Origin: Alphaproteobacteria bacterium
Lineage (GTDB): Bacteria > Pseudomonadota > Alphaproteobacteria > JAVJVX01
Length of the DNA stretch: 64,000 bases
Assembly: GCA_040220875.1 (NCBI GenBank)
Contig: JAVJVX010000005.1
Span: 521,665-585,664 of the forward strand
Direction of reading: 5' to 3'
Shown piece by piece: positions 2,811 through 26,003 of this stretch; the first letter of the stretch is position 1, and every line of letters begins with the position of its first letter. Position numbers and translations under genes: made by a program. The notes under the pieces are model-generated. The model worked only from the letters and a program-made list of their open reading frames with translations. It had not been told where the DNA came from and did not search any database.

Positions 2811-2832
2811 GGAGGGCCAGCGCCGACACGCC

Positions 2833-3891
2833 TCAGGTCACGATGGCGACATGCTCGAAACCGCTTGAAACCTGTGTCGCCGCATCGAGTGCCTCGGCCG
2901 CCTGGTCGAGCGGAAACACCTTGGCCGATGTCGCCGAAAGGTCGAGGGCGCCCGAGCCGATCAGGCGCAGCAACTCTTCCGTCATGTCGTAAGGGAACCA
3001 TTCGGATCCCCGAATCGTCAGCTTGCGCCCGATCATCATCGTCGCATAATCCACCGGGATGGTGGCGTCCAGCCCGCCGATCAGCACGGCGTGGCCTTCG
3101 ATGCCGAGCGCATCGATGGCCGCCCGCGTCGGCCGCGCATCCTGGGTGAACCCCGTCGCATCCACGAAGAGATTCGCCTGCCCGGCGACGGACAGGATAT
3201 CGGCAGCAGCAACCCCCTTGGCCGTGGAGACCGCCCTGACCCGACCGGGCGCCAGGCCTTCCAGCCGCTCGAGTGCAGCCGGCTTGCGGCCCATGGCGAT
3301 GATGGTCGAGGCCCCCATGGCGAGGAGCAGCAGGACCGCTGATACCCCCAGCGCCCCCGTTGCCCCGTTGACAATGGCAACGTGACCCGGCCGGAATGCG
3401 CCGCGCTTGATGGCGTAATAGGCCGTCCCGATATAGCCGAAACGGCTCAGCACGGCGGGATCGACCTTCTCGGCTGCGCCAAGGGGGGTGACGCATTCCG
3501 CCGGCAGGAGAAACTTCTCTGCAAAGCACCCGTTCGGCCATTCCTTCAGGACCGCTTCGCCGCCCGGCATCGGCGCCGCCAGCCCGACATAGCCGCCAAG
3601 CCCGGAAACGCCCTTCAGCGTCACCCAGTCATCGCAGTAGACCTTCTGGCCTGCTTCCAGCCCGTGCACGTCCTCGGCCACCGCCTCGACGGTGCCGATA
3701 GCGTCCGTACCCGGAATATAGGGCGGCGGCGGAAGCGGAAACGGCACCCGGCCTTCGGTAAACTCCTTCATCGGTGCCGGCACGAAGCCGGCATCCACCC
3801 GCACGATGACACATCCCGGCCGGAGCACCGGGTCGTCAACTTCCTCGACCCTGGCGGGGGTGGCGAAATCGCGAACGAGAAGCGCCTTCAT
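2833..3891 (-). CDS. Zn-dependent medium-chain dehydrogenase/reductase (MDR, quinone-oxidoreductase-like)
   Basis: GroES-like N-terminal domain and a Rossmann segment IVNGATGALGVSAVLL. Its start overlaps the upstream Rieske gene stop by 4 nt, so it is probably in the same operon. Confidence 0.85.
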   Translation of the reverse strand: MKALLVRDFATPARVEEVDDPVLRPGCVIVRVDAGFVPAPMKEFTEGRVPFPLPPPPYIPGTDAIGTVEAVAEDVHGLEAGQKVYCDDWVTLKGVSGLGGYVGLAAPMPGGEAVLKEWPNGCFAEKFLLPAECVTPLGAAEKVDPAVLSRFGYIGTAYYAIKRGAFRPGHVAIVNGATGALGVSAVLLLLAMGASTIIAMGRKPAALERLEGLAPGRVRAVSTAKGVAAADILSVAGQANLFVDATGFTQDARPTRAAIDALGIEGHAVLIGGLDATIPVDYATMMIGRKLTIRGSEWFPYDMTEELLRLIGSGALDLSATSAKVFPLDQAAEALDAATQVSSGFEHVAIVT

Positions 3892-5048
3892 GAGATTTTC
3901 CCCCCACCCTCGAGTTCGGCCGCATAGGCCCGGAAGCGTGTCACCAGCCAGCGGTTGAAATGAATGAGCGGCGTCTCCAGATATCCGTACCGGCCGCCAT
4001 AAACGAAGCGCGATCGCCGGCCCTCCTGAACCGCGCGGTTGGCCGTGATGTCCTGATCGTTGATCTCGTTGAAATCCTCGAGGACCTTTTCGAGAGTCTC
4101 CTCGAAATCGGGCCGCTTGACGGTGCTTTCGGGATAGAGGAAGCCAACTCGCAGCGTGATGTTCTCGGGTCCGGCCGGACGGATAATGAAATAGAAGGCG
4201 CCGTCGGGCAGCGTGGTGAAAAGCATGTTGGGCGGTACAACGCTGAACATGACCCGCCAGCGGTCTTCCTCCGTCAAGCTCTCGAGTACGGGAAACATGC
4301 TCTTGCCCGTCCGGGTGAAATTGGCGTCCCTGTGGGTAAAGGCCGTGGGCGAGAAGATGGCTCCGTCATCCTCCGGATCCCAGTCGGGAAAAGTCGCGTT
4401 CCGGTTCGGCGCCATGTCATGATAACCCCTGTGAGCGACGGCGGTGTGGTAGGGCTCGACGCCGTTCTCCTGCATCCATTTCCAGTTCCACGGATTATCC
4501 GGGATATCGATGGGCGGCAGGGCGACGAGGTCGGCCAGGCGATGATTCTTCACTTCCGCCGTCAGCCGCTTCAGCCGGGACGCGAGCGGGCGGGCCGTGC
4601 CGCTCAGATTGACAAAGATAAAGCCGTTCCAGATCTCACTGCGCAGAGTTGGCAGGCAGTGATCCTCCCGCAGCTCGTCGAGCGAGGCTGTCCGTTCCAT
4701 TTGCGGGGCCGACAACAATTCTCCGTCGAGGCCGTAGACCCAGCCATGATAAGGGCAGGTGAACTGCCGGGCGTTACCGCCCGCCTCGCCCAGGATATGC
4801 CCGCGATGGCGGCAGACCGCGGGCATCACCCGGATTTCACCGTCGTTGCCGTGCACGACGAGGAACGGGTCATCGTTGATTTCGATCGTGAAATAATCTC
4901 CCGGCCTGGGCACCGTGCCGTGATGGCCGAGACAGATCCAGTCCCGATCCCAGACGGCACGTTTTTCGAATTCGAACCATTCGGCCGAAGTGTAGCAGGC
5001 CGCCGGTAACGGCCGCGCCGTCTCGAAATCCTCGGTCGCGCTATCCAT
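3888..5048 (-). CDS. Rieske non-heme iron oxygenase, alpha-only type (about 386 aa)
   Basis: Rieske motif CRHRGHILG…CPYHGW. The start was reassigned to the internal ATG at 5046-5048 (MDSATEDF…). The listed ORF extends to 5873 only because the frame is open in GC-rich DNA. Confidence 0.8.
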   Translation of the reverse strand: MDSATEDFETARPLPAACYTSAEWFEFEKRAVWDRDWICLGHHGTVPRPGDYFTIEINDDPFLVVHGNDGEIRVMPAVCRHRGHILGEAGGNARQFTCPYHGWVYGLDGELLSAPQMERTASLDELREDHCLPTLRSEIWNGFIFVNLSGTARPLASRLKRLTAEVKNHRLADLVALPPIDIPDNPWNWKWMQENGVEPYHTAVAHRGYHDMAPNRNATFPDWDPEDDGAIFSPTAFTHRDANFTRTGKSMFPVLESLTEEDRWRVMFSVVPPNMLFTTLPDGAFYFIIRPAGPENITLRVGFLYPESTVKRPDFEETLEKVLEDFNEINDQDITANRAVQEGRRSRFVYGGRYGYLETPLIHFNRWLVTRFRAYAAELEGGGKIS

Positions 5049-5330
5049 GCCGGCGAGAAGCTCGCGCAGCACCGGCGAAAGACGAAAATCATCGTCAGGT
5101 GCAGAGTTGAAGCCCAAGGCCTTTCCCCCTTTGTTCAATAGTGCCGATTTGACCGGCGGGTCCGCTTCACGCCGCGCGGCAGGTCTGCCGGAATTGGTCG
5201 TTTTTCCGGATCGCGGGATGTTAGGATGCATGGTAGCGACGGCCCCGGCGGCGTGCAACGCGAATGGCAGGGGCGGTCCGGGATCTGAAATCGCAGCAAC
5301 AGAATTACGGATTTTTGGCAGGGAGGAATC

Positions 5331-5744
5331 ATGGCTCGCAAAACAGCGGTCCACAACGACCGCGCGCCGGATATGCGCGGGTTCTTCAATTGGGGATTGA
5401 AGATTTCCGACATGGACGAATTGTTCATCGCCACGGGACGGCCCGCCTGGGCGGCGGACGGTTCGGTCGTGAGCCCCGGCGATGCAGTGCGCCAGACGCA
5501 ATATATCCTTGAGGACATGGAGAAGTTTCTTGCCGAAGCCGGCTATGCGAAAGATGACCTGATCCGGATTGAATATACGTTCACCAAAGAGGTGGGCGAG
5601 GATCAGTACGAGGCAGTCTTCCGTGTTTTTGCCGACTGGCTCAAGGACGTAGCGGTGAAACCCGCCGCCAGCACACTCCGGATCGTTGACGGCCTCGCCC
5701 TGGCCGGCCTCGTCGTCGAATACGAATTCTGGACCGCGAAATAA
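5331..5744 (+). CDS. RidA/YjgF-like (Rid family) protein
   Basis: 137 aa with an RidA-like C-terminal region (…TLRIVDGLALAGLVVEYEF). RBS GGGAGGAA lies immediately upstream of the ATG. It is divergent from the Rieske gene. Confidence 0.7.
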   Translation: MARKTAVHNDRAPDMRGFFNWGLKISDMDELFIATGRPAWAADGSVVSPGDAVRQTQYILEDMEKFLAEAGYAKDDLIRIEYTFTKEVGEDQYEAVFRVFADWLKDVAVKPAASTLRIVDGLALAGLVVEYEFWTAK

Positions 5745-5803
5745 AACGCGAAATAAAAAATGCCGCGGGGCCCCGGGCCCAGCGATTGTCCGGATGCGCG
5801 ACG

Positions 5804-5825
5804 CCCGGCCCCGATCGGGGCCGGG
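5804..5825 (+). terminator. GC-rich hairpin downstream of the RidA-like gene
   Basis: Perfect inverted repeat cccggcccc-gatc-ggggccggg, preceded by an A-rich stretch. There is no U-tract, so this is tentative. Confidence 0.3.
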
Positions 5826-6026
5826 GTTCAGCGTTGCAAATTTGCGACATCCCGTCACTTTCTCCCGAAACACCGTTCACGATCCGTGTGATCGCATTGA
5901 AGGCCCGGCGCGCTCCGCGTTAGGTGTGGGAGAGGCCCCCGCGACCCGCGGCGATGTGACGAGCGCCGCCGGACCTGATCGTTGGTGGGAAAAACAATCA
6001 AAGATAGATAATGATTAGGAGTTTTC

Positions 6027-6698
6027 ATGACGGGCATTCGCGCCACGGCCGCTGTTGCGGCGACTTTCCTTTTTGCGCCGGCGCTGGCGCAGGCGCAGGA
6101 CGATACGCACTGGTTCAAGAAAGAGAGCGTCTACGCCTTCGGTACCGCTGGCTACAGCATTCTTGAGGATTCGAGCGTGACCAGTTCGGCTGGCAACGCC
6201 GAAATCGAAACCGATGGCGGTTGGGGGGTTCTCGGCGGTCTCGGCTACGATATCGGCCCTGTCCGGCTGGAGCTGGAAGGCAATGCCCGGTCCAACGAGG
6301 CCGATCAGGTCTCGGTTCTGGGTACCAGCGCGAGCGGAGACATCGATTCCTACGGGCTCATGGCCAATCTGTGGCTGGACTGGGATATGCGCCAGGAAAC
6401 CGGCATGCCCCTGATTCCCTATCTCGGCGGTGGGCTCGGCTGGGCACATCTCGAGGCGGACGGCATCGCCACCGGGGGCACGACGCTGGTCGACGATTCC
6501 GACGACCAGGTGGCCTTCCAGTGGGGAACCGGGTTTGCCTACGGTCTCGGGGAGAATGTCCAGTTAACGGTCGATTACCGCTATTACATTGCGTCCGACC
6601 CCGAGTTTACCGACACGGCCGGCGGCCGCGCCGAGCTCGACTACGACAGCCACCTGATCGGGGCCGGGCTGCGCTGGTATTTCAACCCGCGCAGCTAG
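6027..6698 (+). CDS. Outer-membrane beta-barrel protein (OmpW/OmpA-like small porin family)
   Basis: Signal peptide ending ALAQAQ. Alternating amphipathic beta-strand pattern, Gly/Tyr-rich, ending in a C-terminal Phe-containing strand (RWYFNPRS). Confidence 0.65.
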   Translation: MTGIRATAAVAATFLFAPALAQAQDDTHWFKKESVYAFGTAGYSILEDSSVTSSAGNAEIETDGGWGVLGGLGYDIGPVRLELEGNARSNEADQVSVLGTSASGDIDSYGLMANLWLDWDMRQETGMPLIPYLGGGLGWAHLEADGIATGGTTLVDDSDDQVAFQWGTGFAYGLGENVQLTVDYRYYIASDPEFTDTAGGRAELDYDSHLIGAGLRWYFNPRS

Positions 6699-6713
6699 CC
6701 GACAACGACGGGA

Positions 6714-6757
6714 GCGGGGTGCGAGATGGCGGAAAACCGGCCGCGCACCCCCGCTTT
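6714..6757 (+). terminator. Putative intrinsic terminator after the OMP gene
   Basis: Inverted repeat gcggggtgcg … cgcacccccgc followed by ttt. Confidence 0.35.
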
Positions 6758-6865
6758 CCCGGACATCCGGCGCCGCCACAGGCGGACGCCCCTTGCCAAT
6801 CCGATCTGCCCGCCTCATCTTTCCGGTCATCGCCATCGGACCGGGACAGAGGGAGATTCGCGGGC

Positions 6866-7333
6866 ATGAGCCTGAGCACAGACGAGGCACGCATCCAGCG
6901 TTGCTACGAATTGGCGCTGCGCGCGGTGCAGCACGGCAGCGAGCCCTTCGGCGCGCTGCTGGTCAAGGACGACACCATCATCATGGAGGCGGAAAACGCG
7001 ACCCGGAAGGGCGAAGACCCGACGCGCCACGCCGAGACGGAGCTGCTTGACCGGGCGCTCCGCGAACTCGGCATCGATGGTGTCCGCGGCGCCACAATCT
7101 ATACCAGCACGGAGCCGTGCCTCATGTGCTGCGGCAAAATGTATTGGGCGGGTCTCGCGCGACTCGTGTTCGGAGTCCGTATTTCAGAGTTGCGCAAGCT
7201 CATGGATTTCGACTACCGGCTGACCGCCGACGGACTTTTTGAGAGCATGAGCCCGCGAATTCCCGTCTCCGGTCCAGTGCTGGAGGCCGATGGCCTGGCG
7301 CAGCACCGCACCTTCTGGACCGCGCGCGACTAA
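6866..7333 (+). CDS. CMP/dCMP-type nucleoside/nucleotide deaminase (guanine/tRNA-adenosine deaminase-like)
   Basis: Zinc-binding motifs HAE and PCLMC. The start is the internal ATG at 6866 with RBS GGGAGA. The long upstream extension in ORF 6221..7333 is a GC artefact overlapping the OMP gene. Confidence 0.8.
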   Translation: MSLSTDEARIQRCYELALRAVQHGSEPFGALLVKDDTIIMEAENATRKGEDPTRHAETELLDRALRELGIDGVRGATIYTSTEPCLMCCGKMYWAGLARLVFGVRISELRKLMDFDYRLTADGLFESMSPRIPVSGPVLEADGLAQHRTFWTARD

Positions 7334-8049
7334 ACGGCGCCTTCCGCCACGTTGCGCGTTCCAAACCGGTCGAGCGCCGCGGTTGCTTCCTCGCGGGTCA
7401 TCACGTCGCCGAATTGCTGAATGATGTTCTCGAGCGCGGCCTGATGCTCGCGCTCCGAGAGCGCAGCACAGCAATCACGCAACATCACCACATCAAAATC
7501 CATCATCATCGCGTCCCGCGCCGTCGTCTCGCAGCAGATATTTGTCTTGGTTCCGGCGATAAAAAGGCTTCTGAACCCTCGGCTCCGGAGCATGCGCTCC
7601 AATGGCGAAGATCCGGGGATGAGCGCGCTGTAGCGGTTCTTGATTATGAATACGTCGCCTTCGCCAGGCTCCAGCTCGGGCCAGAGCTTCTGGCCCGGCG
7701 CCTCGGGGCGCAGGCTTTGGATGGTGCGCGTGCGCACCTCGTCGGAGACGAAGCGGTTGAAGAACCCGTCCCAGTCGCTGCCCCCCTCGCCGACCGGCTG
7801 GTTGGCGTGAACCACCCAGATCACCGTGCCGCCCCGCTCACGCAATGCAGCCGCGAACTCGTTGATATTCCCGACAATTCCCCGCGAGGCCGGAACCTCG
7901 GCCGGGCTCCCCTCGGCGACGAAAGTGGGCTGCATGTCGATCACCACGAGTGCGGCGCGCGAAGCGTCGATGGCATCAAACAAATGGTAGCGGCCCCGGC
8001 GCGCGATAACACGGTCGGCGACCTCCTTGCTGACATCCGAGTCATGCAT
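7330..8049 (-). CDS. Isochorismatase-family cysteine hydrolase
   Basis: Catalytic region NICCETTARDA and a conserved Asp/Lys context. Its stop overlaps the convergent deaminase gene stop by 4 nt. Confidence 0.85.
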   Translation of the reverse strand: MHDSDVSKEVADRVIARRGRYHLFDAIDASRAALVVIDMQPTFVAEGSPAEVPASRGIVGNINEFAAALRERGGTVIWVVHANQPVGEGGSDWDGFFNRFVSDEVRTRTIQSLRPEAPGQKLWPELEPGEGDVFIIKNRYSALIPGSSPLERMLRSRGFRSLFIAGTKTNICCETTARDAMMMDFDVVMLRDCCAALSEREHQAALENIIQQFGDVMTREEATAALDRFGTRNVAEGAV

Positions 8050-8064: not shown

Positions 8065-8349
8065 TCAGACCTTGATTCGATCCTCAAGAAAGGGATCGCC
8101 CTGCGTCGCCGTCTCCGCATCGAGCAGCGTGCCACAGGACGGACAGAAGAACCGGCGCACCACCACATCATCGGCGGTGGTATAGATCCCATCCACCTGA
8201 TTGAGCGGCGCCTCGTCGAGACGGGCCTTCTCCTTCCATGACTGGCTGACGGGCGCGATCGCCGTTTTGCAGGCGGCGCAGGCTGTCATCCAGACCTGGC
8301 CCTTTTCCTGCGTGGCCACGAGGCTGGCCGAAAGTCGCTTTGTGTTCAT
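8065..8349 (-). CDS. Small Zn-ribbon protein, putative third subunit of a hydantoinase/acetone-carboxylase-type complex
   Basis: 94 aa with two Cys pairs (CAACK … CPSCG). Its start overlaps the stop of the hydantoinase-B gene by 4 nt, which suggests translational coupling. Confidence 0.5.
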   Translation of the reverse strand: MNTKRLSASLVATQEKGQVWMTACAACKTAIAPVSQSWKEKARLDEAPLNQVDGIYTTADDVVVRRFFCPSCGTLLDAETATQGDPFLEDRIKV

Positions 8350-10178
8350 TCCGCAGCCTCCGCCCGAAGCCGATCATCACGCATCTGCTGCCGCCGCTCG
8401 GCCGTCGCCGCCTGATCGACCCGGCCGGAAACCGGATCGGCGACCACGCCATAGAGCCTGAGGGCCGAATCGGCCGAGACCGCACCAAGCCGCAGATCCG
8501 TCTCGACCGCGGCCACCTCGCGCGCCAGAGGATCGCCAAACCCGCCGCCGCCATTCCAGCGCACATAGAGCCCGTCATCCGCGTCGAGCCCATAGAGGCC
8601 CCAGGAGATCCGCTCCGACTGGCCAACCATCTCATCGAGCGAGGCCGGCAGAGGCCCGCGATTGGATGGCCCCGACAGCACGTTCTTGACCTTGACGTAG
8701 TTCGACGGCCCGCCCGGCAGGCCACCCGCCAGCCCCTCGCTCATGGGACAGGTAATGCCCTTGCCCGAGATGACGAAACCGATCCCGCCCGCGGGCGAGC
8801 CATGGGGCACGATCGCGTATTCGGCGCCCATGCCGCCGCGATACTCACCGGCCCCGCCCGAATCGGGCATCATGCGCCGGAACAGGTAGAGGACGGGAAA
8901 TTCCGATTCCATCTGTTCCACATTGGCCATGCGCGAAATCGGGTTGGGCACTTCACCGCCCACATCGATCCCATCGGCGAAACTGCGGGCCCCGCCAGCG
9001 CCGCCGAAGGTCTCGGTCATGATCCCGATGGCGTCCTCGTTTCGCTGGTTCTTGCCGAAAAGGAACAGCGCCACGTGGCTGCCGTGCCAGACCGCGGTCG
9101 CTTCGTCCGCCAGGGTTTCACTGGCCGACAGCATCTTCGAGATGCAGGTCACGCTGGCATTGTTTACCGACTGGATGGCGCCCACCGTCGCAACGGAAAC
9201 CGGCGCCGGTCGTGTGCAGTTCACGATCGTGCCCTCGGGCGCGATCATGCGGATAGGCCGGATGACGCCCTCGTTCCAGGTGATGTCGTAGCAAAGCAAG
9301 GGGAAGATCGGCGCAAACATGCCCCCCCAGGCGGCCCAGTAGGCGCAGTTGACGCCATAGGCGGTCTGCGGACTGGAGCCGGAAAAATCGAAGGTCAACT
9401 CGTCGCCCGTCTTGGTCATGGTGAGCTCGACCCGGAAGCGCTCGCCCTTGAGTTCAAGAAACTGGCGCGACTGCCACTGGCCGTCCGGGAGTTCGCGGAG
9501 CCGGGCACGCAGACGCTCTTCCGACTGGCTGACAAGCCGTCTGCAGGCGTCGTCCACCTGCGCCACGCCGTATTTATCGACCAGCTCGGTCATGCGCTCA
9601 CGCGCGACGTTGTTGCAGGCGATCATGGACCGGATATCGAGCGCCACCATTTCGGACGACCGGACCATGTTCAGCATCGTGTTCAACACGTCATGGCGTA
9701 TCCGCCCCCGGTCCACCAGCTTGATCCCGGGCGAGGAAAATCCCTCGGTAAAAACATCGGTGGAATCCGGGCTGAACCCGCCGGGATTGAGTGCTCCGAT
9801 ATCATAGACGTGGACGAAGCAGGCACTCCATGCGACGAGCTCGCCCTCGTAGTGGATCGGTGCGACGAGATAGACATCCGATGTATGCAGCGCTGCCGTA
9901 TAGGGATCGTTGAGCAGGAACACATCGCCTTCGAAGATATCGCCCTCGAAGTTCCGGATAATGTGCTTGCAGGCCTGGCTGGCACTGGTCAGATGGTGCA
10001 GGAAACCCACGCCACCCATCAGCAGTTCACCCTTCGCCGAGTAAAGGGACACCATCAGGTCATGTCCCTCGTTGGTGATGGCGCTGCCCGAGACATGCTT
10101 GAGCGTGATGACCGCCTCGTCCACGACGCGAAACAGTCGATGGCGAATGATTTCGAAGGTAATGGGATCGAAGGACAT
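8346..10178 (-). CDS. Hydantoinase B / oxoprolinase family protein (HyuB-like)
   Basis: N-terminal DPITFEIIRHRL… is a typical HyuB start. 610 aa. Located directly after the hydantoinase-A gene. Confidence 0.85.
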   Translation of the reverse strand: MSFDPITFEIIRHRLFRVVDEAVITLKHVSGSAITNEGHDLMVSLYSAKGELLMGGVGFLHHLTSASQACKHIIRNFEGDIFEGDVFLLNDPYTAALHTSDVYLVAPIHYEGELVAWSACFVHVYDIGALNPGGFSPDSTDVFTEGFSSPGIKLVDRGRIRHDVLNTMLNMVRSSEMVALDIRSMIACNNVARERMTELVDKYGVAQVDDACRRLVSQSEERLRARLRELPDGQWQSRQFLELKGERFRVELTMTKTGDELTFDFSGSSPQTAYGVNCAYWAAWGGMFAPIFPLLCYDITWNEGVIRPIRMIAPEGTIVNCTRPAPVSVATVGAIQSVNNASVTCISKMLSASETLADEATAVWHGSHVALFLFGKNQRNEDAIGIMTETFGGAGGARSFADGIDVGGEVPNPISRMANVEQMESEFPVLYLFRRMMPDSGGAGEYRGGMGAEYAIVPHGSPAGGIGFVISGKGITCPMSEGLAGGLPGGPSNYVKVKNVLSGPSNRGPLPASLDEMVGQSERISWGLYGLDADDGLYVRWNGGGGFGDPLAREVAAVETDLRLGAVSADSALRLYGVVADPVSGRVDQAATAERRQQMRDDRLRAEAAE

Positions 10179-10181
10179 AGC

Positions 10182-12281
10182 TTAAAACTCGATCACGATG
10201 TTGCGATAAGGGTCCATGCGTGCACGGTGCCCGTCCTGGACGACGATGGTGGTGATGGGGGTCAGGATCACGGCCGCCCCCTCGATCACATTGCCCGGCT
10301 TCAAAGCCTCGAACCGATAGATCCTGCCGTCAACGAAAGAATCCGCGTTCAATGCGTAGATGCGCTTTGTGCCGATCAGCGCGGCCGCCGGATCCGCCGG
10401 GCCTTCCTCGAGCGGCACCATGCCGGGCGTGTTCAGCCGGCCCCGGGCCGTGAGACGGACCATCCGGATCTCGACTCCGGCCTCCTTGTAGGCCGAGCCC
10501 TTGCCGTATTTATCTTCGTAAAGCTGCTCGAAATCAGCGACCAGTCGCTCAAGCCCCGCCTCGTCCAGCGGCATATCGGCGCCGACCCGCGTGGTCACCT
10601 CATGCACCTGGCGGCGATAGCGCAGATCGGCTGCCAGATCCAGTTCGATCCGGTCATCCGAGAACCCTTCCTCGCGGAGGCGTGCCTGGCCTGCGGTGAT
10701 GAGCGCCGACAGCAATTCGTTTAACGTCTTTACCTCGCCCGGCACACGAATGGCGCAAGGTGTCGAGAATTCGTGCACCACGTCCGAGGCCACCATGCCA
10801 TAAGCGCAGTTGACGGAAGCGGTATAGGGAATGATGACGCGGCGAACACTGAGTTCGGCGCCGAACGCGTCTGCCAGAAGGGCGCAACTGCCCCCGAAGG
10901 CATGGATACTGAATTCGCGCGGATCATGGCCACGCTCCACCGTGACCTTACGGATGAGATCGGTGATCTGGGCGGCGGCGACCTTGTAGACGCCGACAGC
11001 CGCTTCCTCGACATCAAGGCCGAGGGGCCGGGCCACTTTTTCTTCGAAGGCACGGCGCGCACCCTCAACGTCCAGCGACAGCGATCCGTTGAGGAAGGTC
11101 GTCGGATCCATATAGCCGATCAGGGTCATCACATCGGTCAGCGCAGGCTCTGTCCCGCCCAGGCCGTAGCAGACCGGCCCCGGATTGCTTCCGGCGCTCT
11201 CCGGTCCGATGCGAAGCGATTTCGTCGCTGCATCAGCGCGTACCAGGCTGCCGCCGCCGGCACCGATCGAGACGATGTCGAGCTTGGGCGCCGTATAGTG
11301 GTAGCGGTCGACGATCGGTTCGCGGGCGTACTCCAGAAGCCCGCCGCGAATGACACCGACCTTGAAGGTGGTGCCGCCCATGTCGGCCGCGATCACGTCG
11401 TCCTCGCCCATGAGCTGACCCAGATCCTGACTGCCGATCAGGCCTGCCGCCGGGCCGCATTCGAGCATGCCGATCGAACGCTCCGCCGCCTCTTCGGCCG
11501 AGAGCAGCCCGCCATAGCCCTGCATCACCAGGACCGGCCCCTCATAGCCAGTCGATTTGAGCTGTTTTTGCAGATCGGTCAGATAAGCGTGGGTGACCGG
11601 CCCGGTATAGGCGTTGATCACGGTTGTCGATGTGCGTTCGTATTCGCCGGGCACCGGCGCAATCTCCTTGGATAGGGAGACATAGATTTCGGGGTCGATG
11701 CGCCCGATGATCTCCCGGATCTTTTCCTCATGGGCGGGGTTCGCGAAACTCCAGAGCAGGCTGACGGCCACGGCCTCGGCTCCGGTGCGATTCAGCAGAT
11801 CGCGCAGCGCGGCCTCGGTCTGCCGTTCATCCAGCTCGACCACGACCTCGCCCGCGGCATCCACCCGCTCCGTCACGCCGAGAATGGCGCTCTTATCCAC
11901 CAACGGACGCGCCCGGTGGGTCTTGACGGGATGCTTGATCTCCTCTTCCGTCAGCCCGCCCCAGCGGCCATAGGCGGCGCGCGTCATGGCAAGCGTGTCC
12001 TCGAACCCCCGTGTCGTGACAAGCGCCGTGGCGCCGCCGCTGCGGGTCAGGATCGCGTTGTCGACCACCGTGGACCCATGGACGAAGAGCCGCGTGTCGC
12101 GGAAGAGCTCCTCGACGGTGATGCCGAGATCGTCGGCCGCGGTTTTGATGGACGCCATGACGCCGTTGGCGAATTCAGGCGGGGTCGAGAGCGCCTTGCC
12201 CAGCGCGACGCCATGCTCGTCGGAAAAAACCACCGTGTCCGTGCACGTGCCCCCCACATCCGTCGCCACGACATAGCTCAT
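10182..12281 (-). CDS. Hydantoinase A / oxoprolinase family protein (HyuA-like)
   Basis: N-terminal VATDVGGTCTDTVV (hydantoinase/ASKHA fold). 699 aa. Confidence 0.9.
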   Translation of the reverse strand: MSYVVATDVGGTCTDTVVFSDEHGVALGKALSTPPEFANGVMASIKTAADDLGITVEELFRDTRLFVHGSTVVDNAILTRSGGATALVTTRGFEDTLAMTRAAYGRWGGLTEEEIKHPVKTHRARPLVDKSAILGVTERVDAAGEVVVELDERQTEAALRDLLNRTGAEAVAVSLLWSFANPAHEEKIREIIGRIDPEIYVSLSKEIAPVPGEYERTSTTVINAYTGPVTHAYLTDLQKQLKSTGYEGPVLVMQGYGGLLSAEEAAERSIGMLECGPAAGLIGSQDLGQLMGEDDVIAADMGGTTFKVGVIRGGLLEYAREPIVDRYHYTAPKLDIVSIGAGGGSLVRADAATKSLRIGPESAGSNPGPVCYGLGGTEPALTDVMTLIGYMDPTTFLNGSLSLDVEGARRAFEEKVARPLGLDVEEAAVGVYKVAAAQITDLIRKVTVERGHDPREFSIHAFGGSCALLADAFGAELSVRRVIIPYTASVNCAYGMVASDVVHEFSTPCAIRVPGEVKTLNELLSALITAGQARLREEGFSDDRIELDLAADLRYRRQVHEVTTRVGADMPLDEAGLERLVADFEQLYEDKYGKGSAYKEAGVEIRMVRLTARGRLNTPGMVPLEEGPADPAAALIGTKRIYALNADSFVDGRIYRFEALKPGNVIEGAAVILTPITTIVVQDGHRARMDPYRNIVIEF

Positions 12282-12395
12282 CCGGTATCCTTTTCTGCGC
12301 TATTCCCTGCCCACGCCCGGTGGCGCCCAGCCGGACGATAATATATTTAATTTCAATTGAAATCCAACGATAAAACGCCGCGGCGCGGCCGCCAT

Positions 12396-13070: not shown

Positions 13071-13140
13071 GCGGTCAAAATGAAACTGCCGGCCAGTTTA
13101 CACTGGCCGGCAGTTATATTGCGAGTGATGTCCGCTGGGT

Positions 13141-14466
13141 TTAGCGGCCCGTCTCCTCGAGCACCGCGAGGTTGAAGTCCTCGGGGCTCAGGCCTGGCGG
13201 GTTCATTTCGCAAGCGCCACCACCCTCGATGGTGAAGAAGGTCGCGTGGTCGCGCTGGAAATCTATGTTCACACCGAACGAGGTGAACATGTAGATGGCG
13301 GGGTTGCCGTTGGCGTCACGCCATCCGTCCAGCGATTCGTAGACCCTGTTGGCAAACGAGGCCCATTTCCAGAATTCGCCCTTCTGGTCGTATCCGGCCA
13401 TGAAGTAGGGCCGCCAGATTTCGGCATCGAACCAGTTGATCTTGCGCGAATACGGATGGTATTCGGGCGGCGTCGATTCGACGACGTAGACCGGACGCAC
13501 TTCCCACATGTCCCTGGTATTCCAGTAGGGCTCGGTGCTCAGATCGATCCGCGGGAAGGTATCCTGATCGGAACTGGCGTTGGGATACCATGAGCCGCGA
13601 TCGGTGAGCGGCACGTCCTTGGCGCTGTTGGCGTGTGCGAAGACATGCGTCTTGCCGAGCAGCTTGTAGCTCTTGTACCAGCTGGGATGGGCGTTGAAGG
13701 TTTCAAGATCGTCCTGCAACTGGTCGGTTCCGCCGATGGGGTCCATCCAGGCGCCGCCCGACAGGCGGCGGATCCGGCGGACGGTGCGGATATAGGCCCA
13801 GATGTCATCCAGCTTGGGATCCCAGTACCGGATGGAAAAGGTGCCGAGGCCCTTGATGTCCTGCGGGAAGCGGGCGAAGAGCAGGCTCTTGTGGTACTGC
13901 GATCCGTCACCCTCCACGTAGGGTTGGTTGACCCGGGCCCGCATGTAGTAGCGCGCGAAGGTCCAGTGCTGGATGCGCTCGATCCCCTGCGAGCCTTCGA
14001 TGAAGACCTGGGCGAACGGGCACCAGAACTGGTCGCCGTGGGGCTGCATCGTCGTGTAGTTCCAGACGATCTTCGCAGCCACGTCCGGGTCGTCCGCGTT
14101 GATTTCCGGGAACGGAATGCCGGTCGTGTAGTTCTGGATCATGTTGGTGGTGGGATCGAGGCTGGCCTGGCCCTTGTACTGCTCGGTCAGCTGATTGATC
14201 CGCGGATCGTAGGGCATCGGATTGGTTGCCTCGACCGGGCGGATTTTCAGGTTCTTGTTGCGGACCTGCCATTCCAGCCGCTCCGGAATGAGGTCGCCCA
14301 CCTTGTGACCTTCGAAGGTCTGGGTCTTGACCTGGTCGATATTCGCAGCACTGATGACCGTCCCCGGGGCCAACTCCTCGGCGCCGGCGCTCGCCGACAG
14401 GCCGAGAGCGGCCGCGAACCCGACCGTGCCTGCGAATACGCGCATGCGGTCTCTTCTAGTTAACAT
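13141..14466 (-). CDS. DUF1329 family periplasmic protein (LolA-like), paralog 1
   Basis: Family motifs GIPFPE…KIVWNY, VRRIRRLSGGAWMD and RPVYVVESTPPEYHPYSRK…FDAEIW. Start reassigned to the ATG at 14466 with RBS GAGGAG 7 nt upstream. Signal peptide MRVFAGTVGFAAALGLSASAGA. Confidence 0.7.
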   Translation of the reverse strand: MLTRRDRMRVFAGTVGFAAALGLSASAGAEELAPGTVISAANIDQVKTQTFEGHKVGDLIPERLEWQVRNKNLKIRPVEATNPMPYDPRINQLTEQYKGQASLDPTTNMIQNYTTGIPFPEINADDPDVAAKIVWNYTTMQPHGDQFWCPFAQVFIEGSQGIERIQHWTFARYYMRARVNQPYVEGDGSQYHKSLLFARFPQDIKGLGTFSIRYWDPKLDDIWAYIRTVRRIRRLSGGAWMDPIGGTDQLQDDLETFNAHPSWYKSYKLLGKTHVFAHANSAKDVPLTDRGSWYPNASSDQDTFPRIDLSTEPYWNTRDMWEVRPVYVVESTPPEYHPYSRKINWFDAEIWRPYFMAGYDQKGEFWKWASFANRVYESLDGWRDANGNPAIYMFTSFGVNIDFQRDHATFFTIEGGGACEMNPPGLSPEDFNLAVLEETGR

Positions 14467-14764
14467 CCCGTACTCCTCAAGTTTATGAATTTGGTTTCCC
14501 GTCTCGAACCCATCGTGCTCCGAGGCAGGGCTGTCCACCCCAGACCGGTACCGATGCGTTCCCCCCAGAAAATTTCTGTCCCCCTTCTTTCGAGTGGGTT
14601 CGTGCTCAAGAATAACGGGGAATTCCATTCGCGGACAACATGAAAAGGATTTCAGACTCCGGATTTTTGACGCCCCGTCTGTCGCGCGACTCGGGACCGC
14701 GCCAACCCGCCCGCCGCGCCGAAAGCCGCGATTGCCCGTGATATCACGCGTCGCGGCGCGGCCG

Positions 14765-15256: not shown

Positions 15257-16648
15257 TCATTGTCTGTCCGAGATCATCTCGAGGACCTTTCGTCCGAGTG
15301 TGATGAGATCCAGCGGTTTCTCCAGAAGGGCGGTGTTGCCGTCCTGCAGATGGTCAGAGATCTCGCCGATATGGCTCGAGCCCGTGACGAAGATGACCGG
15401 CAGGCGCGGGTCACGCGCCCGGAGAAGTCGAAAAAGCGCTTTGCCATCCATGCCGGGCATGCGGAGATCGGTGATCACGATATCGGCGGCGGCGGCGGCA
15501 AAAGCGTCTGCGGCGGCGCGGCCTTCCTGGAAGGTCTCGACGACGCACCCCAGCGCGGTCAGGTAGGTCGCGACCATTTCCATCGCTTCCTTCTCGTCCT
15601 CGACGACAAAAACCCGCGCATCGATCCTGGTTACTCCGGGATTGAGGAGTCCGGGCGCGTTTTCGCTCGGGCGCGCCTCGTAGCTCACGGCTTCACCACC
15701 GCCCCCCGACTTTGCCCGCGCGCCCGAAGCCGGCAGGGTCACGCGGAACTCGGCCCCGCCCGGCACGTTCTCGACACTCACGCTGCCGCCCATTCGGCGG
15801 ACGATCGTCAATACGTTGGCGAGCCCAAGCCCCGTACCCTTACCCTCCTCCTTGGTCGTGAAAAAGGCGTCGAATATCTTGTCCTTGTGTGCCGCGACGA
15901 CGCCGCCGCCCGTATCACGTACCGTGAACCATGACATGTTGAGGGCGGCTTCTTCGGCAAGGTAGAGCGAGATTTCGCCGATCGGGCCGTCGCCCTTTAC
16001 CGACCGACCATTCTGCGCGGGCGCATCGCGCGCATTCTGCACGACCGCATCGCGTGCATTCTGCACGACCGCATCGCGCGCATTCTGCACAAGGTTGATG
16101 ACGATCTGTTCCACCTGAATGGCGAAACCCGTCGTCAACAGATGACTCTGCGCCACATCGACATTGAAACGGATGTGTGCGCGCTCCAGTTCGGCCTCGA
16201 GAAGCCGGGCCGCGCCAAGCAGCGCCTGGCTGAGCAGGAAATCCGAGGGCCGGCCCCCTTCCTTGCGGGCGAAACCCCGCATGTGGCGGATCATCTCGGC
16301 CATGCGCTGGGTTTGTCGCCGAATGGCACGAAAACGCGCGATCAGGGGCGAAGTGCCGTTCTCATCCGACATGATCGCCATATCGGCCTCCATGCGGATG
16401 ACATTGAGCGGCTGGTTCAGCTCATGGGTCAGGGTGGCCGCCATCTGGCCCAGAGACGCCATCTTCTGGGTCTGGACGAACTGGCTTTGCAGCAATTCGC
16501 GTTCGGTCGTATCACGGCCGGTCAGGATATAGATCTGCCGCCCACCGAGAGACATGCGGGTCAGGGCGGCATCGAAGGGAAACTTGCGTCCGGAAGGGCT
16601 TGCTCCCGAAAGACGCATGAATTTTGTCGCCGCCTCGTCATCCTCCAC
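15257..16648 (-). CDS. Hybrid sensor histidine kinase (HisKA-HATPase-REC); 3' part of a frameshifted PAS-kinase gene
   Basis: H-box LTHELNQPL, N-box NLVQNARDA (triplicated in tandem), G-box GTGLGL, and a C-terminal receiver (VFVVEDE…ITDLRMPGMDG). The N-terminus begins mid-PAS domain (RKFPFDAALTRMSLGGRQIYILTGRDTTERE). Confidence 0.8.
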   Translation of the reverse strand: MEDDEAATKFMRLSGASPSGRKFPFDAALTRMSLGGRQIYILTGRDTTERELLQSQFVQTQKMASLGQMAATLTHELNQPLNVIRMEADMAIMSDENGTSPLIARFRAIRRQTQRMAEMIRHMRGFARKEGGRPSDFLLSQALLGAARLLEAELERAHIRFNVDVAQSHLLTTGFAIQVEQIVINLVQNARDAVVQNARDAVVQNARDAPAQNGRSVKGDGPIGEISLYLAEEAALNMSWFTVRDTGGGVVAAHKDKIFDAFFTTKEEGKGTGLGLANVLTIVRRMGGSVSVENVPGGAEFRVTLPASGARAKSGGGGEAVSYEARPSENAPGLLNPGVTRIDARVFVVEDEKEAMEMVATYLTALGCVVETFQEGRAAADAFAAAAADIVITDLRMPGMDGKALFRLLRARDPRLPVIFVTGSSHIGEISDHLQDGNTALLEKPLDLITLGRKVLEMISDRQ

Positions 16649-18035
16649 CGGCCATCAGGTGCTTCAGGTTTTCTGCCTCGTAGGTGCTGAAAAGAACATT
16701 CACGGGTGCACCGATCGTATCGTGTTCGTTCCGGCCGAAGACCCGCTGGGCGGCACGATTGAGCGATTCGATCAGACCGCCGGGGCTGATCGTCACGATG
16801 GCCTCGCCCGCCTGCTCCAACACGGTGCGGATGCGGCGCTCCTGCGCCATCAGATCCGCTTCGGCCTTCTTTCGCGGGGTGATGTCCGAAAAGGTATCGA
16901 CGATGCCATCCCTGAACGCGATAGCCCTGACCTCGAGCCAGACATCGCCCTCCGCGGTTGGCTGGCGATACTCAAATTGCTGCAGTTGCGATGTTTCAAT
17001 CGCATCAACGAATTTTTGAAACAGGCCTGTGTCCCGTGCTTCGGGAAAGGCCCCGAGCAGGGAATTTCCGACAAGTGTTCCGCCCCGATAGCGCAGCAAC
17101 CTCTGGGCTGCGCGGTTCACCAGGTCGTTCCTGAAGTCGACGATCCGGCCCGTGTCATCCCGAATGGTCGTCAATTTGGCGATGCCGATGGAAGACGCCT
17201 CGAAAATCCCCTCAATGAGAGCGAGCGCCGCATCCCGTTCGGTCATGGTCTGACGTTCTTCCGTCACATCGAGCGATATGCCCCCCAGGCCGACGAGGGC
17301 GCCATCCGAAGCGGTGACGGGAAACTTGATCGATTCGAAAATTCGTTCGCGGCCATTGAGCACAGCCATCTCATCGACGGTAACGGTTTTTCCGGCCTTC
17401 ATCACCGCGAGGTCGTTCTCACGCAGTCTATTGCCCAGATCGGTCGGGTGAATTTCCTGGTCCGTCCGCCCGATCATGTCTTCCGGGTTTAGCCCGTAGA
17501 ATTCGGACCCGTAGGTACTGTGCAGCAGGTATCTTCCGTCCGGGGTCTTGAAATAGACCGCAGCCGGCACGGCGTGCAGGAAGGCCAGGAACCGGGCCTC
17601 AAGATCCTTGTGCAGTTTTTCGAGGCGCTGCACCTGATCCAGGCCGGCGACCGGATTGGCCTCGCGCAGGCTGACGATGAGGCGCTCGTCCATGGGGTTC
17701 AGGCGGATCAGGAAATCGGTTCCCTCATGATCCTTGAAACGGTGCAGGAGGCTTTCCGGCCTGACCTGATCGAGGACACGGGACAGGATGCGCGCGAATC
17801 CGTCGGGCAGGGGCGCCGGCATCACAGCGGCCAGCGACGAGAGATCGCCGGCACTGCTGGCCAGCAATCGCGCCTTCCGGTTGCGATAGAGACAGATGAA
17901 GTCCTCGAGCCGTTCGCCCGGCCCCTGGCGTTCGACGAAATAGACCGCCTCGTCGGCGGTTTCGACGACCGCCCCCAGCATGTCCCGTGGCAAGGAGGCG
18001 ACTCGCCAGACTTGAGGTTTTGGGGCTGATGACAC
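16638..18035 (-). CDS. Multi-PAS sensor segment; 5' part of the frameshifted hybrid histidine kinase gene
   Basis: Several PAS-like repeats. It ends GRNEHDTIGAPVNVLFSTYEAE…, the first half of a PAS domain whose second half continues in the +1 frame at the start of ORF 15257..16648. Confidence 0.75.
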   Translation of the reverse strand: MSSAPKPQVWRVASLPRDMLGAVVETADEAVYFVERQGPGERLEDFICLYRNRKARLLASSAGDLSSLAAVMPAPLPDGFARILSRVLDQVRPESLLHRFKDHEGTDFLIRLNPMDERLIVSLREANPVAGLDQVQRLEKLHKDLEARFLAFLHAVPAAVYFKTPDGRYLLHSTYGSEFYGLNPEDMIGRTDQEIHPTDLGNRLRENDLAVMKAGKTVTVDEMAVLNGRERIFESIKFPVTASDGALVGLGGISLDVTEERQTMTERDAALALIEGIFEASSIGIAKLTTIRDDTGRIVDFRNDLVNRAAQRLLRYRGGTLVGNSLLGAFPEARDTGLFQKFVDAIETSQLQQFEYRQPTAEGDVWLEVRAIAFRDGIVDTFSDITPRKKAEADLMAQERRIRTVLEQAGEAIVTISPGGLIESLNRAAQRVFGRNEHDTIGAPVNVLFSTYEAENLKHLMAGGG

Positions 18036-25847: not shown

Positions 25848-26003
25848 GGCGCGTCCGGTCTTCGGTCATTTGGAAACGAAGGTCCACCACAGAGCCTTGT
25901 GACGCATGATCCCCCAGTCGTGGCAGGTTTGTCCATAAACCGATTAGCTGGGGTCGAGGAAAAATGGGGGCGCCTCTCAGACGCCCCCGGAGAAAGCAGG
26001 ATC

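Follow-up and report, generated by a model that had tools for sequence, protein, structure and literature searches.

A candidate four-gene catabolic operon in an alphaproteobacterium links a hydantoinase-type enzyme and a carboxylase-like gamma subunit with a cysteine amidohydrolase

INTRODUCTION

The hydantoinase/ketone-carboxylase superfamily comprises ATP-dependent enzymes that act on carbonyl groups. Its members include two ketone carboxylases, acetone carboxylase AcxABC of Xanthobacter autotrophicus (PDB 5SVB, 5SVC, and 5M45) and acetophenone carboxylase ApcABCDE of Aromatoleum aromaticum (PDB 5L9W), and the caprolactamase CapAB of Pseudomonas jessenii (PDB 6YRA), alongside further ATP-dependent two-subunit lactamases, hydantoinases, and 5-oxoprolinases. 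A small gamma subunit has been described so far only in the two ketone carboxylases and not in the hydantoinase-type (Hyd) enzymes (PMC5214803), and caprolactamase has none (PMC5214803, PMC8453981). In creatinine degradation, ATP-dependent ring opening of the HyuAB type is followed by the action of an isochorismatase-family cysteine amidase on the carbamoyl product; the steps catalyzed by RutB and BiuH are analogues that follow ring opening.

Here, we analyzed a 64,000-nt stretch of an alphaproteobacterial contig (the window). An initial annotation of its sequence had described, at 8065-12281, a hydantoinase A/B pair followed by a small four-Cys protein in an order said to mirror those of acetone carboxylase, acetophenone carboxylase, and caprolactamase. 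The comparison holds for acxABC. It fails for acetophenone carboxylase, whose apcABCD(E) genes run alpha', gamma, alpha, beta (PMC5214803), and for caprolactamase.

RESULTS

The lengths first reported for the three proteins and the 4-nt overlap at the last junction match the minus-strand ORF list exactly (Table 1). According to both the ORF list and the sequence, the hyuA stop and the hyuB start lie 3 nt apart. The overlap is an ATGA at 8346-8349, common to the hyuB stop and the start of the small ORF, and the gamma ATG has a GGAGG 7 nt ahead of it. All three ORFs have a coding-type composition (GC3 of 0.77 to 0.80 versus GC2 of 0.46 to 0.48). The extent given initially was one gene short, as it missed a co-transcribed isochorismatase-family amidase. 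The amidase gene begins 15 nt downstream of gamma; it is tightly linked and is part of the hyuA-hyuB-gamma unit.

Table 1. Features of the hyuA-hyuB-gamma locus and its flanks (window coordinates)
Feature	Coordinates	Strand	Role and basis
hyuA-like alpha subunit, 699 aa	10182..12281	-	ATP-binding and phosphorylating component; Pfam, PDB matches, motifs
hyuB-like beta subunit, 610 aa	8346..10178	-	Metal-site catalytic component; Pfam Hydantoinase_B
Gamma subunit, 94 aa, Cys4 zinc-ribbon	8065..8349	-	PF08882, AcxC match, fold
Isochorismatase-family cysteine amidohydrolase, 239 aa	7330..8049	-	Fourth operon gene; Pfam Isochorismatase
Upstream control region of hyuA	12282..12395	-	Read from sequence; hairpin, AT-rich stretch, palindrome
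MarR/HTH_27-type winged-helix regulator, about 219-224 aa	12396..13070	-	Candidate local regulator; Pfam HTH_27
CDA-fold nucleobase-type deaminase, 155 aa	6866..7333	+	Pfam dCMP_cyt_deam_1; possible accessory step

How does the module fare in relatives? We compared 80 species-level loci and found the hyuA-hyuB-gamma order in 79 of them; gamma directly followed hyuB in 77 complete cases and in 2 that were cut by contig ends, in line with the expectation that the small ORF would be conserved next to hyuB. The window DNA is 63% GC, and its ORF list holds many spurious ORFs. In such DNA a length of 94 aa is unremarkable by itself; judged from the sequences, the conservation of gamma is far beyond chance, because the ORF is kept as a protein beside hyuB in 79 of the 80 species genomes. 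In 67 of the 80 loci, the amidase gene followed downstream in the same orientation, usually at a spacing of about 10 to 40 nt or with just a regulator gene between. The alpha-beta-gamma variant is widespread, in about 80 bacterial species, and its genes are annotated in databases yet uncharacterized.

The similarity of the small protein to carboxylase gamma subunits was borne out by both sequence and fold. Pfam PF08882 (Acetone_carb_G) matched it with 39.4 bits (E = 8e-10; gathering cutoff, 21), and AcxC (5svb_C) matched it with an E value of 5e-5. When its AlphaFold2 model (pLDDT 89.4) was compared to the PDB with Foldseek, only AcxC (TM 0.76) and the Apc small subunit, also a Cys4 protein (TM 0.79), were retrieved. 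The four cysteines, C24, C27, C69, and C72, form a CxxC...CxxC zinc site like that of AcxC and show little or no variation among 150 homologues and 77 orthologues; besides this site, K39, R65, and E79 are also invariant or nearly so. The 94-aa protein is, on these alignments and the predicted fold, a true homologue of the acetone/acetophenone carboxylase gamma subunit.

Of 58 longer gamma homologues, 42 were HyuB-gamma fusions or fusion fragments (7 full length). Dozens of fused clusters of 680 to 710 aa were 69 to 100% identical to a fused query (P0016), and unfused HyuBs were 74 to 90% identical to P0016 across the HyuB part. Two of the 80 loci carried fusions, and a further fused form was present in an archaeon. 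Because many homologues fuse gamma to the C-terminus of HyuB, these predicted proteins show that gamma sits at the beta C-terminus and is a subunit of beta. The suggestion that the enzyme is a reduced member of its family was misleading: the lengths quoted for AcxB (776 aa) and AcxC (168 aa) are indeed those of the PDB chains, but across the predicted homologues about 90 to 100 aa is the common core form of gamma, to which AcxC adds some 60 aa at its N-terminus. The Apc counterpart has 129 aa.

The alpha subunit matched Pfam Hydant_A_N, Hydantoinase_A, and Hydant_A_C. Its best PDB match was CapA (6yra_A, 373 bits), followed by a HyuA-type chain of Apc (5l9w_B, 364 bits), N-methylhydantoinase (7hk5, 360 bits), and the HyuA-type subunit of Acx (5m45_B, 315 bits). 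The motifs DVGGT at 8, K29, DMGGTT at 300, and GSNPGP at 364 correspond to D11, K32, D295, and the GxxPGP motif of CapA (PMC8453981), which shows that the predicted alpha protein carries an actin-like ATP site, at a position equivalent to that in Acx.

In HyuB, Pfam Hydantoinase_B spans residues 4 to 550. Its metal tetrad D40/H98/D101/H123 is invariant in 80 of 80 orthologues (65 to 71% identical to the window protein) and aligns with D41/H99/D102/H124 of CapB and D65/H123/D126/H148 of Apc, showing a predicted Asp-His-Asp-His metal site in beta. Acx has its metal site at equivalent positions, but its first ligand is Glu89 rather than Asp. HyuB is also shorter than its 776-aa Acx counterpart and the 684-aa Apc chain, and it aligns with AcxA only at residues 4 to 230 and 387 to 605 (139 bits).

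We then placed HyuB in a tree against 11 gamma-less Hyd sequences. In this rough neighbor-joining analysis, whose reference sequences are partly incomplete, the deepest split put HyuB together with Apc and Acx among the gamma-bearing enzymes, apart from caprolactamase and N-methylhydantoinase. Bootstrap support for separating HyuB and Apc from the gamma-less enzymes was 97% (544 columns), and it was 69% when Acx was included in an N-terminal analysis (227 columns). All other short-gamma HyuBs behaved likewise, joining Apc and, in the N-terminal analysis, Acx. The best pairwise scores of HyuB were nevertheless to caprolactamase and N-methylhydantoinase. These data support the hedged proposal of a divergent member of the ATP-dependent carboxylase/lactamase superfamily, whereas the option of a place in the lactamase branch is contradicted by the tree.

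The fourth protein matched Pfam Isochorismatase (E = 4e-43), and all 67 orthologues retain its catalytic Asp-Lys-Cys triad, D38/K137/C172. Its nearest characterized relatives are RutB, biuret hydrolase (BiuH), and N-carbamoylsarcosine amidase; they are distant (42 to 85 bits), and no characterized enzyme was matched above its cutoff. The amidase is nearer to RutB and an uncharacterized cysteine hydrolase (3irv) than to N-carbamoylsarcosine amidases (1nba, E = 5e-10). All three characterized relatives act on ring-opened ureides, and the amidase is the best clue to operon function.

The deaminase gene is convergent with the amidase gene, their 3' ends overlapping by 4 nt. Its product best matched guanine deaminase in the PDB (1wkq, 64.7 bits), with a TadA score below cutoff. 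A homologue directly follows the amidase on the same strand in three related loci (L057, L086, and L089) and lies nearby in a fourth (L078). The deaminase may be an accessory step of the pathway. Two unrelated deaminase folds, CDA and TRZ/ATZ, adjoin the module in different genomes. In 14 loci the amidase is immediately followed by a PnrA/BMP ABC system, in Variovorax an NCS1 permease ORF and the hyuA ORF overlap as called, and BKACE genes lie upstream in 15 loci. Distant short-gamma systems adjoin a CoA ligase and UbiD, enoyl-CoA hydratases, or an alcohol dehydrogenase, and one has a class-III aminotransferase upstream. A gene for a GbcA-like Rieske N-demethylase-type oxygenase lies near the locus.

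DISCUSSION

Our best overall explanation, to which we give about an even chance, is that hyuA, hyuB, gamma, and the amidohydrolase gene form a four-gene catabolic operon built around an alpha-beta-gamma, ATP-dependent, carbonyl-activating member of the superfamily. It probably serves in the breakdown of a nitrogen-containing ring compound; its most likely function, again at roughly even confidence, is to open a cyclic ureide or imide at the expense of ATP, after which the amidase would cleave the product. By analogy with the CapAB, Apc, and Acx structures, alpha would phosphorylate the enol or imidate form of the substrate carbonyl, the activated intermediate would pass to the beta metal site, and gamma would act as a noncatalytic structural zinc clamp on beta. 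Operon logic suggests that beta would hydrolyze a small cyclic ureide or imide (hydantoin, dihydropyrimidine, or nucleobase derived) at its activated C-N bond and that the amidohydrolase would cleave the resulting carbamoyl or half-amide group to release ammonia, either alone or together with CO2. In some genomes, these steps may be preceded by the action of a nucleobase-type deaminase on an amino-substituted ring.

We favor hydrolysis because alpha and beta are Hyd-like in size and score best against caprolactamase, because the first metal ligand is Asp and not the Glu of Acx, and because the bicarbonate-activating machinery of Apc is absent, the locus having a single HyuA-type gene (no alpha' paralogue) and no epsilon. 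The ring-opened ureides taken by characterized members of the amidase subfamily, the nucleobase/hydantoin-type transporters in related loci, and the two deaminase folds argue in the same direction. Carboxylation, the main alternative, is clearly less probable: alpha would activate a ketone or amide carbonyl plus bicarbonate, beta would form a C-C bond to yield a beta-keto or malonamate-type acid, and the amidase would act before or after, on an amide group of the substrate. Against hydrolysis and for carboxylation stand the confinement of described gamma subunits to Acx and Apc, both of them carboxylases and the only characterized members of the HyuB superclade, together with the acxABC-like gene order, the ketone-carboxylation-like context of the distant short-gamma systems, and the BKACE genes; the amidase itself lacks an above-cutoff characterized match. 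Caprolactamase itself, moreover, requires bicarbonate (PMC8453981), which leaves little distance between the two chemistries. However, alpha' and epsilon, both required by Apc, are missing from the locus, HyuB lacks the extensions of the Acx subunit and has Asp in place of Glu89, and the supporting tree is rough. Rather than a beta-keto-acid CoA ligase, transferase, or thiolase, the most conserved partner here is a cysteine amidohydrolase (the partners in Acx being acetoacetate-utilization genes), and nucleobase-type transporters and deaminases adjoin.

It is unlikely that the enzyme is a monolactam hydrolase of the caprolactamase or oxoprolinase type that acquired gamma and has a functionally unrelated amidase as neighbor. 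The best pairwise and profile scores to CapA and CapB, the subunit sizes, and the aminotransferase in one distant locus, as in the caprolactam pathway, fit this idea, but the NCBIfam scores (CapA, 509; CapB, 272) fall far below the equivalog cutoffs of 1000, the 97% split sets HyuB apart from CapB, and amidase linkage in 67 of 80 loci is unlike an unrelated-neighbor pattern. Slightly more doubtful still is a creatinine branch consisting of N-methylhydantoin amidohydrolase and N-carbamoylsarcosine amidase, with the deaminase as creatinine deaminase. The operon logic is identical, N-carbamoylsarcosine amidase is a detectable isochorismatase-family match, several homologues of P0016 bear the JGI label "N-methylhydantoinase B," and the Rieske-type oxygenase is nearby. 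Yet the structurally characterized N-methylhydantoinase (7hk5) belongs to the gamma-less clade, the amidase is closer to other enzymes, the JGI label reflects generic orthology, the locus has no linked genes for sarcosine metabolism, and no sarcosine oxidase, creatinase, or creatininase cluster recurred in the 80 loci. Finally, the 94-aa ORF might be a chance ORF, such as are common in this GC-rich window, or a separate zinc-ribbon protein with no connection to the enzyme, as its orthologues are just 30 to 52% identical to it, against the higher values for HyuB. We consider this extremely improbable and refuted by the Pfam match above the gathering score, the fold, matched solely by AcxC and the Apc small subunit, the retained Cys4 site with K39, R65, and E79, the position kept in 79 of 80 loci, and the recurrent in-frame HyuB fusions.

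The region upstream of hyuA has a terminator-like hairpin after the preceding gene (terminator-like sites at 12392-12365). It is also AT-rich in one stretch and contains a perfect palindrome of 14 bp, ATTTCAATTGAAAT, at 12350-12363. A scan for the sigma-70 consensus found no promoter; a promoter or operator role of the region is putative. The adjacent MarR/HTH_27 protein (Pfam HTH_27, E = 1e-10) is a candidate local regulator, although the link is weak because 27 related loci carry instead an adjacent XRE-type HTH protein of about 205 aa.

A four-gene operon

The initial annotation had named three consecutive reading frames of 699, 610 and 94 aa with a 4-nt overlap, and these exactly matched our ORF list. 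Their unit, drawn at 8065-12281, was one gene short: it missed the isochorismatase-family amidase that follows gamma. The gap between hyuA and hyuB is 3 nt, the ATGA at 8346-8349 is common to the end of hyuB and the start of gamma, and the ATG of gamma has a GGAGG 7 nt upstream. The amidase gene starts 15 nt past gamma in the window and carries an AAGGAG ribosome-binding site. In hyuA, hyuB and gamma, GC3 is high (0.77-0.80) and GC2 is low, which is the pattern of real genes in 63% GC DNA. Because the amidase is conserved downstream in related loci with an invariant triad, and because terminator-like hairpins lie 3' of both genes upstream of hyuA, we conclude that the operon unit is hyuA-hyuB-gamma-amidase. 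A sigma-70 consensus scan upstream of hyuA found no promoter, and Rfam and tRNA scans of the 64-kb window returned no matches.

Table. Coordinates of the operon genes and of neighboring features in the window
Feature	Position	Strand	Remarks
PF11723 homotrimeric Rieske hydroxylase	695-1885		
Alpha/beta hydrolase	2064-2810		
Zinc ADH	2833-3891		
GbcA-like Rieske oxygenase	3888-5117	-	409 aa as called in other assemblies
RidA-like protein	5331-5744		
CDA-fold guanine-deaminase-like protein	6866-7333	+	convergent with amidase, 3' ends overlap by 4 nt
Amidase	7330-8049	-	isochorismatase-family hydrolase; PF00857
gamma	8065-8349	-	94 aa; Acetone_carb_G (PF08882)
hyuB	8346-10178	-	610 aa; Hydantoinase_B
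hyuA	10182-12281	-	699 aa; Hydant_A_N/Hydantoinase_A/Hydant_A_C
DUF1329 lipoprotein-sorting-like gene	13141-14628		
HisKA/HATPase/receiver protein	15257-16648	-	463 aa
PAS-domain protein	16638-18035	-	465 aa

A small subunit homologous to Acx and Apc gamma

The likeness of the small protein to carboxylase gamma subunits was upheld by its family, sequence and fold matches. It matched PF08882 at 39.4 bits (gathering cutoff, 21; E=8e-10; model positions 12-100 of 113) and aligned with residues 62-145 of AcxC (5svb_C, E=5e-5); the Apc small subunit (5l9w_C) was a weaker match. Its AlphaFold2 model, built with 42 homologues, had a pLDDT of 89.4, and the only significant matches to this model in the PDB were 5svb_C, 5m45_C and 5svc_C (TM 0.76-0.78) and 5l9w_C (TM 0.79), with all remaining fold matches at E > 0.2. 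A word-indexed search with the gamma protein as sole query recovered nothing beyond its own cluster; relatives emerged by exhaustive HMMER and profile searches, the HMMER search giving 172 representative clusters.

The Cys4 signature that had been proposed is present and is conserved in at least 98% of aligned sequences among the best 150 homologues (C24 in 129/131, C27 in 132/132, and C69 and C72 in 150/150 each), in which K39, R65, P70 and E79 are also strongly conserved. These cysteines correspond to Cys22/25/75/78, the zinc or mercury site of the Apc small subunit (Weidenweber et al., PMC5214803). On both sequence and model, the small protein is a genuine homologue of the Acx and Apc gamma subunits with a predicted zinc site; its NCBI name is already "acetone carboxylase subunit gamma". 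The initial annotation was right that beta and gamma are shorter than their Acx counterparts (610 versus ∼776 aa and 94 versus ∼168 aa), but "reduced" does not describe gamma. Since 80 of the best 150 homologues measure 80-125 aa, ∼90-100 aa is the normal gamma core and the family norm, and AcxC (168 aa) is N-terminally extended.

Conservation of the module and fusion of gamma to HyuB

With HyuB as the query and one genome per species, we collected 80 related loci from Alpha-, Beta- and Gammaproteobacteria, with HyuB 65-71% identical to the window protein. Cultured carriers among them are Salinihabitans flavidus, Variovorax sp. M-6, Vineibacter terrae, Microbaculum sp., Pandoraea terrae and Mesorhizobium sp. 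Conservation of the small ORF beside hyuB was borne out: gamma follows hyuB in 77 of the 80 loci, as a separate gene in 75 (typically with the same 4-nt overlap) and fused in 2, and contig ends truncate 2 further copies. Of the two proteins, gamma is the faster-evolving (30-52% identical to the window gamma) and has kept its Cys4 site, with 76-77 of the 77 orthologues conserved at each position. In 67 of the 80 loci an amidase orthologue is encoded downstream in the same orientation, and contig ends account for 5 of the 13 misses. The sole locus without gamma or amidase, L040, has an integrase-like ORF directly after hyuB (∼9840-10200), which suggests that a mobile element may have disrupted the module there.

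Fusions were frequent among the longer gamma homologues. Of the best 150, 58 exceeded 125 aa, and in 42 of these the gamma domain was immediately preceded by a HyuB segment; 7 of the 42 were full length (686-730 aa), and the rest were fragments ending at contig edges. Searching with one fusion, P0016, retrieved dozens of fused clusters (680-710 aa, 69-100% identical to P0016). Unfused HyuBs were 74-90% identical to its HyuB part, so fused and unfused forms belong to one orthologous group. A plasmid of Halorientalis marina encodes a fused HyuB-gamma of 722 aa, and in the plasmid search this haloarchaeal protein (50%) was the only HyuB above 31% identity. The occurrence of such fusions in nature indicates that gamma acts while physically bound to the HyuB-type subunit; in the Apc structure, gamma sits on the HyuB-type subunit (PMC5214803). 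The AlphaFold2 model of a natural HyuB-gamma fusion was mediocre (mean pLDDT, 68.6; pTM, 0.76).

Several loci showed variations in layout. In a subset of loci, gamma and the amidase are separated by an XRE-type HTH regulator of ∼200 aa. A regulator of this type (∼205 aa) is found in 27 related loci, often in two copies, one immediately 5' of hyuA and the other in the gamma-amidase gap (in L012, at 1254-1889 and 6162-6797), whereas in the window the position upstream of hyuA is held by a MarR-type gene. A small ORF and a PIN-domain protein, resembling a toxin-antitoxin pair, lie between gamma and the amidase in L010 (10325-10980), L022 (10438-10848) and 5 more loci. The distant short-gamma locus L005 (1-8288; likewise L006 and L007) holds three HyuB paralogues (623-625 aa), one HyuA and one 95-aa gamma; this multi-beta set is unusual and is followed by a branched-chain-type ABC transporter.

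Catalytic sites of the alpha and beta subunits and of the amidase

The superfamily hallmarks, ATP motifs in alpha and an Asp-His-Asp-His tetrad in beta, are both present. In HyuA, the ATP-site motifs (DVGGT at 8, K29, DMGGTT at 300 and GSNPGP at 364) correspond to those mapped in CapA (PMC8453981). The HyuB metal tetrad D40/H98/D101/H123, invariant in the 80 orthologues, aligns with Apc D65/H123/D126/H148 and with CapB D41/H99/D102/H124, mutation of which abolishes activity (PMC8453981). The first metal ligand is thus Asp40 in the window HyuB, in contrast to the gating Glu89 of the Acx Mn site. HyuB ends about where CapB does; the Apc chain continues for another ∼40 aa.

The amidase matched PF00857 at E=4e-43, and its triad, Asp38-Lys137-Cys172, is invariant in the 67 orthologues. 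It scored below every equivalog cutoff (RutB, 84 versus 378; BiuH, 69 versus 370; others likewise). Its nearest relatives are RutB, the uncharacterised cysteine hydrolase 3irv, biuret hydrolase and N-carbamoylsarcosine amidase. To our knowledge, the characterised ones (RutB, biuret hydrolase and N-carbamoylsarcosine amidase) all hydrolyse ureido or carbamoyl amides that come from ring opening. These data show that the predicted alpha-beta-gamma enzyme is complete, that its sites are intact and that its genes are tightly coupled to one for a cysteine amidohydrolase.

Position within the superfamily

Three architectures have been listed for this superfamily: Hyd (alpha-beta, hydrolases), Acx (alpha-beta-gamma) and Apc (alpha-alpha'-beta-gamma-epsilon); Hyd complexes were stated to have no gamma, which was treated as specific to ketone carboxylases (PMC5214803). 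Of the gene-order parallels drawn initially, the one with Acx stands, since the order hyuA-type, hyuB-type, gamma is also found in the window. The Acx HyuB-type chain bears terminal extensions, however, and alignment of the window HyuB with it (5m45_A) was confined to two segments. The parallels with Apc and caprolactamase do not hold. Apc has alpha, alpha' and epsilon in the order apcABCD(E), in contrast to the single hyuA and A-B-gamma order of the window and the 80 related loci. Caprolactamase and the Hyd enzymes are (alpha-beta)2 without gamma, whereas the window enzyme has a conserved gamma that in some relatives is fused to beta.

Pairwise and profile scores favoured caprolactamase, with Apc close behind, and all lay far under the equivalog cutoffs (NCBIfam CapA, 509 versus 1000; CapB, 272 versus 1000; ApcC, 373 versus 1500; ApcD, 218 versus 1500; PDB matches, CapA 373 bits and CapB 235 bits). 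We built HyuB neighbor-joining (NJ) trees from 16 short-gamma HyuBs, 11 gamma-less HyuBs (including CapB and N-methylhydantoinase) and the HyuB-type chains of Apc and Acx, the last two taken from HMMER alignments. These trees are rough, given simple distances, some partial references and limited sampling. A split between the 11 gamma-less HyuBs and the 16 short-gamma HyuBs plus Apc received 97% bootstrap support over 544 columns; with the Acx N-terminal segment included, the group of short-gamma, Acx and Apc chains received 69% over 227 columns. Because this split separates gamma-less HyuBs from the short-gamma and Apc chains, the presence of gamma and the HyuB phylogeny agree. On the gamma-bearing side, the short-gamma enzymes form a broad, short-branched radiation, and Apc and Acx are long branches. 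In this rough NJ tree the window enzyme is placed on the gamma-bearing side of the family and not with the characterised Hyd enzymes. Of the carboxylase or lactamase branch suggested initially, the tree does not favour the lactamase side: the window HyuB lies apart from CapB and N-methylhydantoinase with that 97% bootstrap.

Proposed chemistry and alternatives

What reaction might such an enzyme carry out? By analogy with solved relatives, alpha would phosphorylate the enol or imidate form of a carbonyl, the phosphorylated intermediate would move to the metal site of beta, and gamma would serve as a structural zinc clamp; both published analyses put gamma far from the active sites. We see about an even chance that the module uses ATP to open a cyclic ureide or imide, one that resembles a nucleobase or hydantoin or is derived from such a compound, and that the amidase then cleaves the product. 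This reading is favoured because the amidase relatives, the attached transporters and the adjacent deaminases point together. In other genomes, the transporters that accompany the module are of the nucleobase or hydantoin type: a PnrA/BMP ABC system directly follows the amidase in 14 loci, and an NCS1 nucleobase:cation symporter, scoring above its subfamily cutoff, has an ORF that overlaps the hyuA ORF as called in Variovorax. Two unrelated deaminase folds adjoin the module. The CDA-fold guanine-deaminase-like protein occurs in the window and four other loci: in three gammaproteobacterial MAGs (L057, L086 and L089) its gene is the next one after the amidase, in the same orientation, and in L078 it lies nearby; a TRZ/ATZ-type amidohydrolase deaminase holds a neighboring position in three other loci, including L049.

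The main alternative, that the enzyme is a carboxylase, draws on the HyuB phylogeny, the presence of gamma itself, BKACE genes near 15 loci, and distant short-gamma systems that stand beside CoA-ligase, enoyl-CoA-hydratase or ADH genes. We judge it less likely, as the alpha' and epsilon subunits of Apc are absent, the Acx extensions and Glu ligand are absent, and the partner is an amidase. Caprolactamase needs bicarbonate (PMC8453981), so hydrolase and carboxylase chemistries may be closer than their names suggest. A creatinine/N-methylhydantoin pathway was down-weighted. We also considered a Rut-like pathway, prompted by the likeness of the amidase to RutB, by the RidA-like gene and by a luciferase-like monooxygenase 9 kb off, and rejected it: no RutA model matches this monooxygenase, which is also unlinked and not conserved.

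The genes are automatically annotated and the domain family is already in Pfam, and the module itself is uncharacterised: literature searches on hyuA/hyuB, hydantoinase/oxoprolinase, isochorismatase and PF08882 found no description of it. A more speculative reading, to which we give less than even odds, is that the short-gamma alpha-beta-gamma enzymes, separate or fused, may be a large undescribed fourth architecture of the superfamily, with Acx and Apc its specialised long-branch offshoots and the gamma zinc ribbon no marker of carboxylation; or, newer still, that enzymes of this clade use ATP to carboxylate nitrogen heterocycles or amides, or catalyse another new reaction on them, paired with a dedicated cysteine amidase. 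The locus represents a widespread fourth arrangement with Hyd-sized alpha and beta, a minimal gamma of 90-100 aa (sometimes fused to beta) and a fixed amidase partner. This arrangement is found in no fewer than 80 species of Alpha-, Beta- and Gammaproteobacteria, and haloarchaea have more distant relatives of it. One characterised member would tell whether gamma tracks chemistry or ancestry alone, give a substrate to a common nitrogen-catabolic module of sea and soil, and correct the automatic gamma label; the interest would be greater if the chemistry proved new. Cultured carriers (Variovorax sp. M-6, Pandoraea terrae LMG 30175, Salinihabitans flavidus DSM 27842 and Vineibacter terrae) make the module directly testable.

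Surroundings of the operon

A perfect 14-bp palindrome, ATTTCAATTGAAAT, stands at 12350-12363 in the AT-rich stretch that separates hyuA from the MarR-type gene; it is a plausible candidate operator for the winged-helix (MarR-type) regulator. A strong terminator-like hairpin (13084-13115, minus strand; 14-bp stem with 9 G-C pairs) lies directly 3' of the DUF1329 gene. The PAS and HisKA ORFs overlap by 11 nt, and in L001, another assembly of the same locus, they form a single 918-aa hybrid histidine kinase, which suggests a frameshift, an assembly error or a strain variant in the window record.

On the other side of the operon, the oxygenase/hydrolase cluster at 695-5117 looks like a catabolic island, putatively for an aromatic or N-methylated compound. 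A mechanical ORF at 3888-5873 (minus strand, 661 aa) over-extends the GbcA-like oxygenase, whose domains begin at residue 312. In L001 and L002, which extend past the window start, that further region adds a second pair of hydrolase and PF11723 genes and a formate/nitrite-type transporter. Two stretches of the window, 24000-30000 and 42000-52000, have a GC content of 0.55-0.59 versus 0.61-0.67 elsewhere in it and may be acquired regions.
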